Positions 52,717-62,355 of a stretch of 64,000 bases of DNA are shown here, in pieces (position 1 is the first letter of the stretch; each line of letters starts with the position of its first letter). This DNA is from Myxococcota bacterium (GTDB lineage Bacteria > Myxococcota_A > UBA9160 > SZUA-336). The notes under the pieces were generated by a model that searched no databases, had not been told where the DNA came from, and saw only the letters and a program-made list of their open reading frames with translations. Both the position numbers and the translations under genes were made by a program. The DNA lies in NCBI GenBank assembly GCA_965247115.1, contig CBDFGR010000002.1, positions 544,001 to 608,000 of the forward strand. The letters are read 5' to 3'.

Positions 52717-53793
52717 ATGGATTCTCTCAAGACTGTTTCTAATCATAAACTGCTCCGTGGCCTGGACGAACTCGTGGCGATGCGCCGCCAGAACGAGGCA
52801 GACCTGCTCGCGTACCTTGCCGAGGTCGATCAGCGCAAGCTCTATCTGGGAGAGGCCTGCTCGTCCATGCATTGCTACTGCACGGAGGTGCTCCGATTCT
52901 CGGACGCGACTGCCTTTCACAAGATTCGCGCTGCACGGACTGCGCGCGCATATCCCGCCTTGTTCGAGAGAATTCGAAAGGGCGAGATCCACCTGGCGGG
53001 AGTGATTCTGCTCGCGCCCCTACTCACTCCGCAGAACCACGTGGAACTGCTCGACCTGGCGCACCACAAGAGCCGGCGTGCGATCGAGGTGCTTCTCGCC
53101 AATCGCGCTCCAAAACCTGATGTGCCGGCGCGGGTGAGGAAGCTCCCAGAGCCCAGTCCGGCCCCTGTGATCCCGATGCGCTCCGAGACCCGTAGTCCGC
53201 CGCACGAGACTTCGGGCCGCGAAGCGGCCGCCTCACCTCCGATTCGACGCGCATCGAGTCCAGCCCCGAGCCCGCTCGGGGCCAATCGGTTCAAGATCCA
53301 GTTCACGGGCAGCCAGGCGCTCTACGACAAGCTCCGTGAGGCGCAGGCTCTGCTCAGTCACCAGATTCCGGACGGCGATCTCGTGGAGATCTTCGATCGA
53401 GCGCTCACGTTGCTGCTCGAGGATACGAAGCGGAAGAAGTTCGCCCAGACGCCGAGACCCCGAGCTGGGTCGAACCCCTCAAAGCGGACCGGAGCCGCGA
53501 CCCGGCACATCCCGGCGGAGATCAAGCGTGCCGTCTTCGCGCGGGATGGAGGTCATTGTGCCTTCATCGGAGCGAACGGCCGCCGTTGCGGTTCACGCGA
53601 CTTTCTCGAGTTCCATCACCAGGACCCCTGGGCCAAAGCGAAGCGCCACTCGAGCGACCGAATCGAGCTCCGCTGTCGAGGGCACAACCAGTACGCAGCG
53701 GTGCAGGAGTATGGGGCTGCCTGCATGGCGCGATTCGCGAGGCAAAGACCACTCTCCAAGGGAGAGTGCAACGTAAAGCATCGGCAGGAATGA
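52717..53793 (+). CDS. DUF222-like helical domain plus C-terminal HNH endonuclease-like protein
   Basis: LLAYLAEVDQRKLY...SSMHCYC; RHIPAEIKRAVFARDGGHC...C...LEFHH...LRCRGHN. Confidence 0.82.
   Translation: MDSLKTVSNHKLLRGLDELVAMRRQNEADLLAYLAEVDQRKLYLGEACSSMHCYCTEVLRFSDATAFHKIRAARTARAYPALFERIRKGEIHLAGVILLAPLLTPQNHVELLDLAHHKSRRAIEVLLANRAPKPDVPARVRKLPEPSPAPVIPMRSETRSPPHETSGREAAASPPIRRASSPAPSPLGANRFKIQFTGSQALYDKLREAQALLSHQIPDGDLVEIFDRALTLLLEDTKRKKFAQTPRPRAGSNPSKRTGAATRHIPAEIKRAVFARDGGHCAFIGANGRRCGSRDFLEFHHQDPWAKAKRHSSDRIELRCRGHNQYAAVQEYGAACMARFARQRPLSKGECNVKHRQE
53750..53768. repeat. Shorter related palindrome at the 3' end of the HNH gene
   Basis: CACTCTCC-AAG-GGAGAGTG shares the ACTCTCC-NNG-GGAGAGT core with 52451-52467. 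Confidence 0.7.
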
Positions 53794-58811: not shown

Positions 58812-59111
58812 TCAGTCGCCGCCACCGAGAACAACCCTCAGGAGCCGTCGTGACGGGATGCCCGAGGACCCGTACATCCGACGGCCCAGGGCGTACTCAG
58901 TCTGCGCGTCAGCGCCCGGTTCAATGTCAGCGCCGTCCACTCGGATTGACGGCGCGCCGACGAAGCGATGCCGCTCGGCTTCCCGCTGGTCGCGAACGTC
59001 TGTCTCCTCGACCTCTGCGTCGAGGCCGAGTTCGGACAAGGTCGTGTCGATCAGCTCGCGCGTCGGTCGGTGGTGCGGACACCCGTCAAAGTACAGGAGT
59101 TCGATCTTCAC
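58812..59111 (-). CDS. DUF2703-like thioredoxin-fold protein
   Basis: IELLYFDGCP, FVGAPSIRVDGADI; GTG start overlaps the stop of the upstream mini-ORF. Confidence 0.72.
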   Translation of the reverse strand: MKIELLYFDGCPHHRPTRELIDTTLSELGLDAEVEETDVRDQREAERHRFVGAPSIRVDGADIEPGADAQTEYALGRRMYGSSGIPSRRLLRVVLGGGD

Positions 59112-59194
59112 GGTCTGGTGCTGTGCTCCGGCTCCGCAGTGTGACCCAGCTCGTCCCCCTCCCACTCCTCTTCCCAACCAAATGCTTTGCTCAT
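59108..59194 (-). CDS. 28-aa mini-ORF (peptide or deletion remnant)
   Basis: AGGAGG RBS then MSKAFGWEEEWEGDELGHTAEPEHSTRP*; GTGA overlap with the next gene. Confidence 0.45.
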   Translation of the reverse strand: MSKAFGWEEEWEGDELGHTAEPEHSTRP

Positions 59195-59199
59195 GTCGC

Positions 59200-59736
59200 C
59201 TACCTCCTAGCTCTCTCCCACCGATCCAGGCGAGTCAGTCCTGCCTTTCATGGGAACTCCTCGACCTTGCGTCCGCGAATCATCCCCAGCACGTGGGGAA
59301 CGGCGCGGAGCTCTCATCCCGGAGCCGCGACGACAGCCGCCACGATGTGCGACGCACCTACCACTCCGAGCACCAGCGCCAGCAGCAGGCCGAAGGTGAG
59401 ACCCAAGGCGGCGCCGTTGGGGCTACCGCCAAGTGCGAGATCCGCGGCGCATGCGAAGACGAACAGGCCGCCCACACCGAGACGCACCTGTCGCCGGGGC
59501 CACGAGCGCGAGAACGGCATGCCGATGACCTCTGGGATCACGTACAGCATGAAGCCGAGGCCGATCCAGGCCATCGGGTTCGCCAGGTTGACGCCGTCTA
59601 CCAGCCTTGGAAAGTCGGCAACCATACCGGCAAAGAAGTAGAGGAGCGCCAGGCCAAATAGCAGTCTCACCGCTCGGCCGATGGGACCAGGCCGCGGGAG
59701 TCGCTCGACCTCGGCAGACGCGGTTTCCCCGCTCAT
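59200..59736 (-). CDS. Membrane protein, putative selenoprotein with two in-frame UGA (178 aa; the standard-code ORF stops at 59314)
   Basis: ...VVAAPG-U-ELRAVPHVLGMIRGRKVEEFP-U-KAGLTRLDRWERARR-TAG; TGA at 59314-59316 and 59248-59250; hairpins follow each. Confidence 0.7.
59272..59309 (-). promoter_or_regulatory. Putative bacterial SECIS element after the first UGA
   Basis: UCCGCG/CGCGGA lower stem, UCCCCA/UGGGGA upper stem, loop CGUGC starting 21 nt after the UGA. Confidence 0.6.
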
Positions 59737-59744
59737 GGGCCAGA

Positions 59745-59776
59745 AAGGTAGCGCTTGAACCCTGGTTTAAGGTCAA
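59745..59776 (-). promoter_or_regulatory. MerR-type promoter/operator
   Basis: TTGACC - 20 nt - TACCTT with dyad CTTAAACC-AG-GGTTCAAG (7/8 symmetric); ATG 8 nt after the -10 box. Confidence 0.78.
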
Positions 59777-60165
59777 CCCCCCTTCGCCCGTGCGGAGAGA
59801 TCGTCGATCACCCCGCAGCGGCCCCTGCGCTCGTGTCTGTGGCACTCCTCCAGAGAGCGCCGCAGCACGCGCTGGACGTGGCGCAGCTCCCGCATACGGT
59901 CGGCCACGGCCTCGAGTCTGCGCTCGATGAGGCGCTGCACCTTGCCGCAGGGCGCTGGGCGCAGGAGCTCGGTCTCGTCCCGCAGCGTGAACGCCGTCCC
60001 CTGCGCCGCCCGGATGAAGCGGAGCCGCTCCACGTCTTCCCGGAAATAGAGGCGGTAGTTCGAGCCGTTGCGACCCGCTGGGCGGAGAATCCCCTCACGC
60101 TCGTAGTACCGGACCGTCGAGGTCGGAACTCCGGCCGCCTTCGCTAGCTCGCCAATCGTGAACAT
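59773..60165 (-). CDS. MerR-family heavy-metal-responsive regulator
   Basis: FTIGELAKAAGVPTSTVRYYEREGIL, NYRLY; Cys in PAPC and C-x8-C (EECHRHERRGRC); RBS GAGGAG. Confidence 0.9.
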   Translation of the reverse strand: MFTIGELAKAAGVPTSTVRYYEREGILRPAGRNGSNYRLYFREDVERLRFIRAAQGTAFTLRDETELLRPAPCGKVQRLIERRLEAVADRMRELRHVQRVLRRSLEECHRHERRGRCGVIDDLSARAKGG

Positions 60166-60182
60166 CTCCTCACCTCCTCGTC

Positions 60183-60202
60183 TGAGGTTGTACCTAACCT
60201 CA
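60183..60202. promoter_or_regulatory. Inverted repeat upstream of the MerR gene
   Basis: TGAGGTT-GTACCT-AACCTCA, perfect 7-bp arms. Confidence 0.5.
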
Positions 60203-60348
60203 AGGTGGCGCGCAGACGCGACCAGACCAGCGGCTGCGCCTTGTTTCCGGCGGCTTTGAAACGCGCGTTGCAGGAAGCCCGAGCCCCGGAACCGTAGCAC
60301 TCGCCGAAACGTCGGCGCCCTACAGTAGGGGAGCTTGGAAGAGCAGTG

Positions 60349-61128
60349 ATGGCGGGTTCTGGTCGCGCGTTAGGGGTCTCGGGTTGGTTGGTCGCCGCCG
60401 CTGTCAGCATCATCTACCTGATAGTGAGCTACGACGTCACGATCCGAGAGCGGGGAGCTCGTAGCCGGGCCGCACTCGCCGCAGCCGTCAATGTAACGCC
60501 AGGCGGGGTGCGGCCAGTCGTCGACGAGCGATACAGCGATCTTGCGGCTGAAGCGCAGATCGCCACAGGGGCCGATCTGCCGGTGGTAGACCGGAGACTC
60601 GAGGCTGCCGAGCGCGAGTTCCCCTCGGACTATCGGTTCACGTATGAGCGAGCAACACTGGCTGTCTACGGTCGAGCCGAACATCACGAGGCGTTCTTCC
60701 ACCTCCGGAGGGCGGCAGAGAAGGCGATCGGGACGGAGAGAGCCGGCGAGATGCTCGATAGATTGGAGCATGACGGAGAGGCCGACGGACGCTTGCGGAA
60801 ACTGGCTGTGGGACACGATGAGTGGTCGGTGCTCCACGAAGCGTTGGAGCATCGGGACGGAGACCGACTCTGGCACTCTCACTCGAGACATCCACCCACT
60901 CCCACGACTCGGAGGAGGGGCCCGTCCGATGACAGTGTGCCAGCTCGTGTGAGCGCCTCATCCCCACTCGAGTACGAAACGCCCTGCCTTGATGCGTTGA
61001 TTGCGCTTCGGCAGGTGCCAATGGACCCAGGGGCAAGAACCGCATATCACCGCCTGCGGAAGGTGTGCCTGGGGGGTTCCCCGTCTGGCCAACCCCCGAC
61101 GTCAGCTCCAAGTCCCCGCCATCACTGA
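60349..61128 (+). CDS. Hypothetical membrane-anchored protein
   Basis: N-terminal TM segment; helical TPR-like middle with EHHEAFFHL; no family recognised. Confidence 0.55.
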   Translation: MAGSGRALGVSGWLVAAAVSIIYLIVSYDVTIRERGARSRAALAAAVNVTPGGVRPVVDERYSDLAAEAQIATGADLPVVDRRLEAAEREFPSDYRFTYERATLAVYGRAEHHEAFFHLRRAAEKAIGTERAGEMLDRLEHDGEADGRLRKLAVGHDEWSVLHEALEHRDGDRLWHSHSRHPPTPTTRRRGPSDDSVPARVSASSPLEYETPCLDALIALRQVPMDPGARTAYHRLRKVCLGGSPSGQPPTSAPSPRHH

Positions 61129-61278: not shown

Positions 61279-62355
61279 GTGTTCGAAACACTTCTCGATG
61301 GGACAGCGCTTCCGAATCTGCACCCCGCGCTCGTCCACTTTCCCATCGCCCTGGCGGGTGTAGCGCTCGTCTTCGACCTCGTGTCACTCGCGCGCCAAGG
61401 AGAGTGGCGAAGCTCGGCGGTCGCACTCTGGTGGCTCGCGGCGGGCGGGGGACTCGCCGCCTACCTGGCCGGCGAGAAGGCCGAGGAGAGTCTCGGGATG
61501 CTCGCTCCAGCGGCGGAGCGCGCGGTTGGTCTGCACAGCGACTTCGCCTGGTGGGCGCTCCTCGGCCTCGGGGCGGTCGCGCTCCTGCGCACCGGCACCA
61601 TCTTTGGTTGGGGCGGTCGCCCGCTGGCCTGGCTGGGTGTTGCGGCCGGCCTCGGCGTACAGCCCCTCATCCTGCGCACCGCCGATCTCGGAGGCGCGCT
61701 GGTGTTTCAGCACGCGGTCGCCGTGACACACGTCCCCCAGCAGAATCCCGAGCCGGAAAGGGCCAGGCTCGCGGCTGAACCGCGCCCGAGCCCGCCACCC
61801 GACCTCGTTCGCGTAGCAGACGGATCCTGGACATGGACTCCCATCCCGGGTGATGTCACCGCACTGGGGCGCGTTCTCGAGCTCTCGGGCGCTAGCGCCC
61901 TCGAGGTCCAGGTGCTGCCGGGTGGCCCGGGCCTACGGCTCCGGGCCACCGGGGAGGGGAGCCTGCTTCTCCCCGAGCGCTTTGGGGATGTTCGAGTTGA
62001 AGGCGACCTCGACGTGGCCGGCTTCGATGGCACGGTGGGACTCGGTGTGCTTGCGCTCGAGCAGGAGGACGGCCTGACTCTCGAACGCGAGTCCACTGGA
62101 GACCTCGCGCTGGTGCGATCCCGCCAGGGCGCCCGCGAGCTGCTCGACCAAGGTACACCCGCACTACAGGAAGGCAGCATCCAACTCGCGCTCTCTGCAA
62201 TCGGCGGCCACTGGAAGGGGTATCTGTTCGATCGGAGCCTGGTGCACGCACACGGCAGCCTGTCGGGAGCTCTGCGTCCGGTGCTGACCCTGCGCGGAGC
62301 TGGCGAGCTCACGCTGCTCGCGCTTCGCGTCACCTCGATGGCAGATCAGGACTAG
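61279..62355 (+). CDS. DUF2231-like membrane protein with a C-terminal beta-rich domain
   Basis: NLHPALVHFPIAL, AYLAGE, H, TADLGGALVF; RBS GAGGAGG. Confidence 0.75.
   Translation: MFETLLDGTALPNLHPALVHFPIALAGVALVFDLVSLARQGEWRSSAVALWWLAAGGGLAAYLAGEKAEESLGMLAPAAERAVGLHSDFAWWALLGLGAVALLRTGTIFGWGGRPLAWLGVAAGLGVQPLILRTADLGGALVFQHAVAVTHVPQQNPEPERARLAAEPRPSPPPDLVRVADGSWTWTPIPGDVTALGRVLELSGASALEVQVLPGGPGLRLRATGEGSLLLPERFGDVRVEGDLDVAGFDGTVGLGVLALEQEDGLTLERESTGDLALVRSRQGARELLDQGTPALQEGSIQLALSAIGGHWKGYLFDRSLVHAHGSLSGALRPVLTLRGAGELTLLALRVTSMADQD

Follow-up and report, generated by a model that had tools for sequence, protein, structure and literature searches.

The window analyzed here, 64,000 nucleotides (nt) of the Myxococcota bacterium assembly GCA_965247115.1 (contig CBDFGR010000002.1, positions 544,001-608,000, forward strand; host genome 5.17 Mb, 98% complete), carries a small locus whose parts, a merR gene, a promoter, a membrane protein gene, a mini-ORF (open reading frame) and a DF-family gene, all lie on the minus strand. 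We consider it very likely that both in-frame UGA codons of the membrane gene are read through as selenocysteine (Sec), so that its product would be a double selenoprotein. Judged by gene neighborhoods across several phyla, the family to which this protein belongs is a regular passenger of mer-type clusters that has not been named before. The locus itself looks like a shrinking or decaying satellite of a mer regulon and not like a new stand-alone system, as which it had been put forward in a preliminary description of this DNA. The membrane gene and its putative recoding elements are arranged as follows, UGA-form denoting copies with both TGA codons:

59200..59736, minus strand: membrane protein gene, predicted double selenoprotein of an unnamed family, 178 codons, motif PG-U-E-x20-U-x7-D-x-W-E
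59314..59316, minus strand: first in-frame TGA, codon 141, in the column of the invariant G-C-E Cys
59282..59300, minus strand: candidate Sec insertion sequence (SECIS) 1, a 7-bp hairpin 14-32 nt 3' of the first UGA, kept in 6/6 UGA-form genes
59248..59250, minus strand: second in-frame TGA, codon 163, in the column of the other conserved Cys
59203..59247, minus strand: candidate SECIS 2, CGCCUGGA, kept in 6/6 UGA-form genes; the structure is weaker and folds disagree

A protein of about four transmembrane segments with two in-frame UGAs had been described earlier, and both points are borne out: four helices are predicted, and the two codons stand 22 codons apart. The Sec machinery is also present, as the host genome has tRNA-Sec together with selA, selB and selD, all over their cut-offs, and selD itself contains a TGA. 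The selB match (G000:C2:1656159-1658025) came in two pieces and passed narrowly, at 257 bits against a cut-off of 242. Among related genomes, selA was found in 5 of the 5 tested. Conservation at the two UGA positions provides further evidence. The first protein search gave 15 non-self matches, of which all nine close ones stop at the residue before codon 141 and the six distant ones continue with Cys at both UGA positions. A family profile search gave 465 representatives, and among the best 150 of these, both Cys are present in 112, termination falls at the first UGA site in 21, only the first Cys is found in 6 (3 of which stop just before the second site), and 11 stop short of the motif. At the protein level, P0115, P0132 and P0139 have Cys at the first site and terminate exactly before the second, and are probable Cys-Sec forms.

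Both TGAs, with the same spacing of 22 codons, occur in five other loci, found in genomes G009, G014 and G002 (3 of 60 relatives) and on metagenome contigs L100 and L101. The resulting six UGA-form loci are 43-62% identical, and the frame downstream of the TGAs stays conserved. The hairpin after UGA 1 has 7 pairs in all six genes, with zero compensatory changes or covariation, and an 8-base word after UGA 2 is kept in 6/6, likewise without covariation. In a comparison with contigs of other runs, which showed 40 of 196 base differences and 12 of 18 indels, neither TGA is affected among the differences shown. Several observations nevertheless weigh against recoding in a functional mer-linked gene. 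Against synonymous shuffles the candidate SECIS elements reach a mean z of just -1.1 (UGA 1) and -0.6 (UGA 2), versus -0.1 in 82 Cys genes, and p<=0.05 is reached in a weak 2/6 and 1/6 genes, respectively. Furthermore, the UGA-form copies of G014 and G002 have no merR, DF gene or operator nearby and a 5' end that looks broken, and the G009 copy has the operator with no linked genes. The membrane gene is the only selenoprotein gene of the locus, and the earlier term "selenoprotein operon" is an overstatement because just one gene carries UGA. The double-Sec family is likely new, with members that gene finders and databases record as truncated hypothetical proteins.

The family comprises at least 1,223 clusters at 90% identity (E<=1e-10, among 8,000 candidates), and every name among the 120 cluster rows listed is "hypothetical protein." The membrane protein matches no Pfam or NCBIfam model, and 75 aligned family members show no consistent Pfam match (PF19948 at E<=1 in 0/75). 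A genome scan with the single membrane protein as query gave no match, nor did the family have any match among 72,556 plasmids. Two Cys columns only are conserved, both after helix 4, and Cys-Glu, Cys and Asp are invariant in the aligned members; because the 75 were picked as full-length proteins with the GCE motif, the conservation of the first Cys is partly due to selection. Other conserved polar residues are two Arg at the inner end of helix 1, an Asn, and a helix-4 His that is present in 69% of aligned members and is Val in the window copy. The four predicted helices correspond to four hydrophobic segments, and structure models, with a pLDDT (predicted local distance difference test score) of 93.7 for a Cys-form member and 81.7 for the window protein, consist of four long helices plus two short C-terminal ones, with the Cys pair after helix 4. 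Lys and Arg are found chiefly in the N-terminus, the middle loop and the C-terminus. This charge bias places both termini and the middle loop inside, and therefore the Cys/Sec pair is likely to lie on the cytoplasmic side. Comparison with solved folds, among them redox bundles of the DsbB/VKOR type, yielded no Foldseek match at E<=0.001, a single match at E 0.68 in a PDB sequence search and a best VIA-align Z of 5.3; a protein atlas search returned unnamed clusters only, under 0.9.

A genome scan confirmed 115 places for the family. Neighborhoods were counted in the best 80 of these 115, which are of the Cys form, with neighbor classes assigned by our own clustering and motif rules and merR counted within 5 kb, and the loci are not independent of one another. 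They span Pseudomonadota, Gemmatimonadota, Acidobacteriota and others. A merR gene lies within 5 kb in 55 of the 80 loci and within 1.5 kb in 44, compared with a background of 3 MerR-like matches in the 5.17 Mb of the host genome, and 57 of 58 neighboring MerRs have all three Cys, the remaining one being cut by trimming. A merA/B/C/F/T/P-type gene is present in 42/80 loci (merA or merB in 13), a GDCCVxC gene in 35, and DF stands next to the family gene in 16. When the count is limited to loci with 3 kb on both sides (n=51), 38 have merR, 29 a mer-type gene and 11 neither. Linkage to a three-Cys MerR, seen in the preliminary description at this single locus, is thus conserved across phyla, and so is that of the membrane gene to the DF gene, the two being fused in 3 family representatives.

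In many loci the family gene directly adjoins merA, merB, merC or merF in the same direction. Identities of these neighbors were checked against family models: one representative MerA scores 570 bits against a cut-off of 454, a GDCCVxC representative is over its cut-off, and Pfam MerB is found in 8/8 MerB candidates, merB adjoining the family gene in 8/80 loci. The MerA proteins of G009 and of L033 have no HMA domain in Pfam. An HMA-thioredoxin fusion is encoded near the gene in 12/80 loci and a second pyridine-nucleotide disulfide reductase in 4/80. Among UGA-form loci, L101 repeats the window order (merR, promoter, gene, DF) and adds a MerT-like gene, and L100 has promoter, gene, DF and MerF. 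Cys-form genes are arranged as merR, family gene, merF, DF and a MerB-like gene in G521, and as merR, family gene, DF and a MerC-like gene in G364. Replacement of MerT or MerB by the family gene is ruled out, since it co-occurs with both. A quick tree of the loci includes 28 shortened rows and was not used to estimate the number of Sec origins. Against a close tie to mercury stand the 19/80 loci that have neither merR nor a mer-type gene, several of them with full flanks, the CusA/CzcA pumps in 12/80 and CsoR in 4/80 loci, and the MerT- and MerC-like neighbors, which are over Pfam and under NCBIfam cut-offs.

The remaining parts of the locus are the following:

60183..60202, no strand assigned: perfect 7-bp inverted repeat with 6-nt spacer seen in the sequence upstream of merR, possible autoregulatory site
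59773..60165, minus strand: merR, three-Cys MerR-family regulator, 130 amino acids (C73, C108, C117), orthologous to the MerR found in front of mer operons of related genomes
59745..59776, minus strand: MerR-type promoter, -35 TTGACC at 59776-59771, dyad operator at 59771-59754, -10 TACCTT at 59750-59745, 20-nt spacer
59108..59194, minus strand: mini-ORF, 28 codons, stop overlapping the GTG of the next gene, likely remnant of a longer (MerF-sized) gene after deletion
58812..59111, minus strand: DF-family thioredoxin-like protein, 99 amino acids, NF049942 at 99.7 bits, Cys form with the second conserved Cys changed to Arg

The regulator and the promoter, both noted previously, hold up on closer analysis. 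The best NCBIfam model for the window MerR is TIGR02051 at 98.6 bits, under its cut-off of 150.85, with the ZntR and CadR/PbrR models close behind (89 and 80 vs 99 bits); C73, C108 and C117 align with the three conserved columns. The protein is 66-67% identical to the MerR of G009, G014 and G521, the closest orthologue being that of G009 (67%). In G009 the orthologous MerR is followed by the same promoter type and then by merA-merT-merP-merF, and in G364 an orthologous MerR and the same operator precede merF-merA-merT-merP-merB. A 6-residue shortening of the window MerR is common to the G364 orthologue and was ruled out as a sign of decay. The promoter, TTGACC-20 nt-TACCTT, has the merR stop codon inside its TTGACC hexamer, a dyad of 7/8 pairs, and the ATG of the membrane gene 8 nt 3' of the -10 box. 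The same layout precedes the membrane gene in G009, G364, G521, L100 and L101, and also precedes merA in G009 and merF-merA in G364. A pattern derived from the promoter has a single match in the 5.17 Mb genome and likewise a single one in the window, a count that is circular as a test of chance; the real support for the promoter is its recurrence before homologues and mer operons. In the window (59744-59736), L100, L101, G009 and before G364 merF, just 6-8 bases separate the -10 box from the ATG, and because of this short distance the MerR-controlled transcripts are predicted to be leaderless.

The preliminary description left the inducing metal at a choice of soft metals, which can be narrowed. 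In both G009 and G364, operons that contain merA are headed by an orthologous MerR together with the same operator. The metal sensed is therefore most likely mercury, and we hold with good confidence that the mercury regulon of the lineage is defined by this pair of regulator and operator. One feature of the promoter argues the other way, namely its 20-bp spacer, which is typical of ZntR rather than of Tn21 MerR.

The absence of merA and merT reported for the locus extends to the whole 98% complete host genome: no merA is over its cut-off (best 401 of 454 bits), there is no MerB match and no MerT over cut-off, and tblastn gave no match to MerT, MerF, MerC or MerB anywhere, a family-model search for MerF being uninformative as it matched no control. 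The last gene is thioredoxin-like, as described before, and belongs to the DF family (99.7 bits to NF049942, cut-off 70). The label "DUF2703-like" was loose because DUF2703 scores 14.6 bits, under its cut-off of 23.6. This DF gene has no UGA and a single Cys, and its second conserved Cys (C-R-x-Y) is Arg, alone among 17 aligned DF proteins (Cys in 16/17). The mini-ORF does overlap the next gene as reported, yet it has no family match, is absent from L100 and L101, and was rejected as a conserved part of the system. In the contigs of runs X7 and X8 its start spans 149 letters versus 33 in the window (116 bases longer), and it is likely the remnant of a longer gene after deletion. Since merF occupies the corresponding position in G521, size and position, on which its identification as a MerF remnant rests, suggest that origin; a DNA alignment with G521 merF was not convincing.

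The regulator gene also varies. Seven bases of merR at 59950, just before the first Cys, are missing in the contigs of all four runs compared from other studies, which amounts to a frameshift. The shown differences comprise 8 amino-acid changes vs 1 silent change in merR and DF and 3 vs 4 in the membrane gene, which hints, if slightly, that the latter is being maintained as its neighbors drift. An RNA run gave two short contigs (depth 3-5) over DF/mini-ORF and merR and none over the membrane gene; contigs cannot show transcription, and these were not used. Given that merA and merB were not found in the genome and that the neighboring genes are decaying, the local copy would be at most a trap and may be silent. 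These features, together with the mer-type genes in 42/80 loci elsewhere, speak against the proposal of a new self-contained system lacking merA, merT and merP.

Several further observations concern the surroundings of the family. In the window itself, a divergent 260-amino-acid membrane-anchored frame without family (60346-61128, plus strand) and a DUF2231 protein (61279-62355, plus strand) flank the merR locus, and neither was seen in related loci. Farther away, a 358-amino-acid frame (52717-53793, plus strand) has no Pfam match and a C-terminal C-x7-C ... HH ... C-x2-HN pattern, which we take to resemble an HNH nuclease. A second unnamed four-helix domain, Cys-rich with the pattern C..NA.RC.RVHC, is fused to the family in 7 loci (L040, L042, L044, L052, L059, L066 and L085) and 5 representatives, and occurs as a separate gene at L023:3618-4046; the domain has no family match. 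In 9 loci (L030, L031, L032, L034, L045, L046, L048, L055 and L087) the family gene has a DUF6410-like paralogue nearby that shares its GCE...C motif and in several of them is directly adjacent. In L060, L068 and L079 the second pyridine-nucleotide disulfide reductase lacks the C-terminal CC and stands in a mer operon beside merA or the family gene; presumably it resembles MerK.

Other genes with in-frame TGAs were found in the same neighborhoods. MerB-like lyases at L106:1842-2513 (G521) and L109/L121 (G364:C25:11671-12045), with Pfam MerB scores of 101.6 and 97.5 bits, have a TGA at the second catalytic Cys and are probably Sec-MerB proteins, closer to MerB than to the SaoL models. A MerB-family match at L110 (G002:C21:109516-109881) contains two TGAs. 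The last gene of a merR operon in G364 (L019:7702-8256) is a lipoprotein-like frame that contains U-x-x-C and is matched by neither Pfam nor NCBIfam; it is a probable unannotated selenoprotein.

We tentatively favor, at somewhat less than an even chance, the hypothesis that an inward-facing selenium-mercury-selenium (Se-Hg-Se) site in the membrane protein catches mercury and hands it to MerA or MerB. From MerR biology and the orthologue before merA, Hg(II) would bind the three-Cys MerR and thereby turn on the 20-bp-spacer promoter. SelB and the hairpins after each UGA would then insert Sec twice, as the machinery and conservation suggest. A linear Se-Hg-Se site would arise between the two selenols, one at the end of helix 4 and the other 22 residues farther on in the C-terminal loop, and Hg(II) or an organomercurial arriving through the membrane would be bound there at the cytoplasmic face. 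Because of the fusions and synteny, we propose that the metal would pass by way of a soluble two-Cys partner, DF or, in other loci, GDCCVxC, to MerB and to MerA enzymes without an N-terminal metal-binding domain. A complex prediction for the G364 Cys-form protein and its DF neighbor scored 0.00 twice and was used neither for nor against this step. A bolder version, which we regard as a distinctly doubtful extension, gives the family a central place in the mercury resistance of marine and sediment bacteria: its two-Cys or two-Sec site would trap organomercury at the membrane and then cleave it or pass it on, the selenium forms being tuned to very low mercury.

The Cys/Sec pair fits a redox site equally well, which counts against metal capture, and the protein could instead be a membrane thiol or selenol redox protein of the mercury regulon that, with DF, repairs thiols or keeps MerT/MerP-type Cys reduced and carries no metal. 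As far as the available part of the source goes, most selenoproteins are redox enzymes (PMC13188914). The family's neighbors include DF, the HMA-thioredoxin fusion, the second disulfide reductase and the UxxC thioredoxin-like gene in G364. However, the membrane protein itself has no CxxC or UxxC motif, and the prediction places the two residues on one side of the membrane and none in the periplasm or mid-membrane for electron transfer. Mercury would also be expected to poison a selenol redox site, and we find a redox role rather unlikely. Less probable still is a new oligomeric mercury transporter, for uptake to MerA or for export, with the Sec/Cys pair as its cytoplasmic exit or entry site. 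The four helices, the conserved helix-1 Arg pair, Asn and helix-4 His, and the operons in which the gene stands beside MerA and MerB would suit such a protein, but the helix-1 Cys pair that is the hallmark of MerT/F/C/E is missing, the family occurs together with MerT, MerF or MerC and not in their place, and the helix-4 His has become Val in the window copy.

A role of the family with a different soft metal (Zn, Cd, Pb, Cu or Ag) or with metals generally, its mer link reflecting mere clustering on metal-resistance islands, would explain the loci with CusA/CzcA or CsoR and those without merR or mer genes, and it agrees with the nearness of the ZntR and CadR/PbrR scores and with the spacer. We consider it improbable because in two genomes merA is preceded by the same operator and an orthologous regulator, and because of the direct same-direction adjacency to merA, merB, merC or merF. 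A membrane-embedded organomercurial lyase unrelated to MerB, in which two thiol or selenol ligands and an invariant acid break the C-Hg bond, is suggested by the invariant Cys-Glu, Cys and Asp, which recall the two-Cys-plus-Asp chemistry of MerB (catalytic residues Cys96/Asp99/Cys159 in the accessible part of PMC10114901). Since the MerB-like proteins of G364 and G521 carry TGA at the second catalytic Cys, Sec would already be used in MerB-type chemistry in the lineage. No structural likeness was found, however, and merB, which adjoins the family gene in 8/80 loci and is present with it in G521, is not replaced there; this possibility seems very improbable. Finally, the UGAs might be true stops in a pseudogene whose product is a 140-amino-acid membrane part or nothing. 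The decay of the neighboring genes and the hairpins, not strong by shuffling, point in this direction, but with the same two codons TGA in six loci at 43-62% identity, a conserved downstream frame and selA in every carrier tested, we find it scarcely credible.

The favored hypothesis of mercury capture and the predicted Sec sites have several consequences. They add a double-selenoprotein family that is missing from the catalogues and whose members are entered in databases as truncated hypothetical proteins, and they name a widespread, unstudied gene that belongs to mer-type clusters in several phyla. Selenoproteins are well known to be poisoned by mercury, so that one whose deliberate synthesis is predicted to be under mercury control offers a test of whether selenium is of advantage in mercury capture. 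Cys-Cys, Sec-Sec and probable Cys-Sec forms occur naturally, and the Cys form is found in the cultured Alteromonas alba 190 and Aliikangiella marina GYP-15. With these natural variants and two cultured carriers, the function is therefore testable now, with a bearing on ocean mercury cycling and bioremediation. If the organomercury-capture reading were true, the protein would be the first two-selenocysteine membrane protein dedicated to handling mercury, and possibly a MerB-independent route of methylmercury breakdown.

In the available portion of a 2026 review, 119 selenoprotein families are listed, including a MerT-type selenoprotein, DF, GOS_B/GDCCVxC and SaoL, and none of these 119 fits the membrane protein by model or motif (PMC13188914). 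The family is not mentioned in the accessible parts of BSepDB (PMC13326102), PMC11308531, bioRxiv 10.1101/2021.08.09.455674 and PMC10832572. We found no description of it in the literature, although supplementary tables (BSepDB Table S2, the groundwater deep-Sep survey) could list it, and word searches for GDCCVxC and DUF6410 found no paper. The SAO and Tso selenoprotein operons likewise place selenoproteins in metal or organometal clusters, with different protein families as far as the available text goes (PMC13188914), and the NCBIfam Sao/Tso models do not match the membrane protein. The DF family (seleno)protein NF049942 was described in deep-Sep (PMC12013277), whose accessible part gives it neither a function nor a mer link. 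The last gene of the locus passes the cut-off of this model, but as a Cys form that has lost its second Cys, and unlike DF as described, the DF proteins seen here are linked with mer clusters and in some cases joined to the membrane protein by fusion. With DUF6410 (PF19948) the likeness is at the level of profiles: the DUF6410-like paralogous group, 4 of whose 6 scanned members match DUF6410 (2 at or over cut-off), matches the family over 154 columns with a probability of 98.4%, and the GR..R and GCE...C...D..E motifs are shared. In contrast to DUF6410, the family has a longer Cys-Cys spacing, and none of the 75 members matches PF19948.

The closest functional parallels are in the mer operons. 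MerT, MerF, MerC and the Sec "putative mercuric transport protein" (PF02411; NF045683) are also small inner-membrane proteins of mer operons with Cys pairs, and a Sec form of the MerT-type transporter is catalogued in Table 1 of PMC13188914, a source available in part. Unlike MerT, MerF and MerC, the membrane protein matches none of their models, and its pair lies 22 residues apart after helix 4 and consists of two predicted Sec. Compared with mer operons of the Tn21/Tn501 type (MerR, MerT, MerP, MerF, MerC, MerA, MerB), the locus likewise has a three-Cys MerR, a long-spacer dyad promoter and a small membrane protein with a Cys site, and relatives of the window's membrane gene lie inside such operons. 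It differs in that merR precedes the other genes in the same orientation and the promoter covers the merR stop codon, in the 20-bp spacer and in the GAAC-N4-GTTC-type operator. It differs from a full mer operon in that no merA, merB or Mer transporter was found in the host genome and the membrane protein is in none of the Mer families. By analogy with these systems, the membrane protein appears to behave as an accessory membrane component of the mer operon that stands outside MerT, MerF and MerC.

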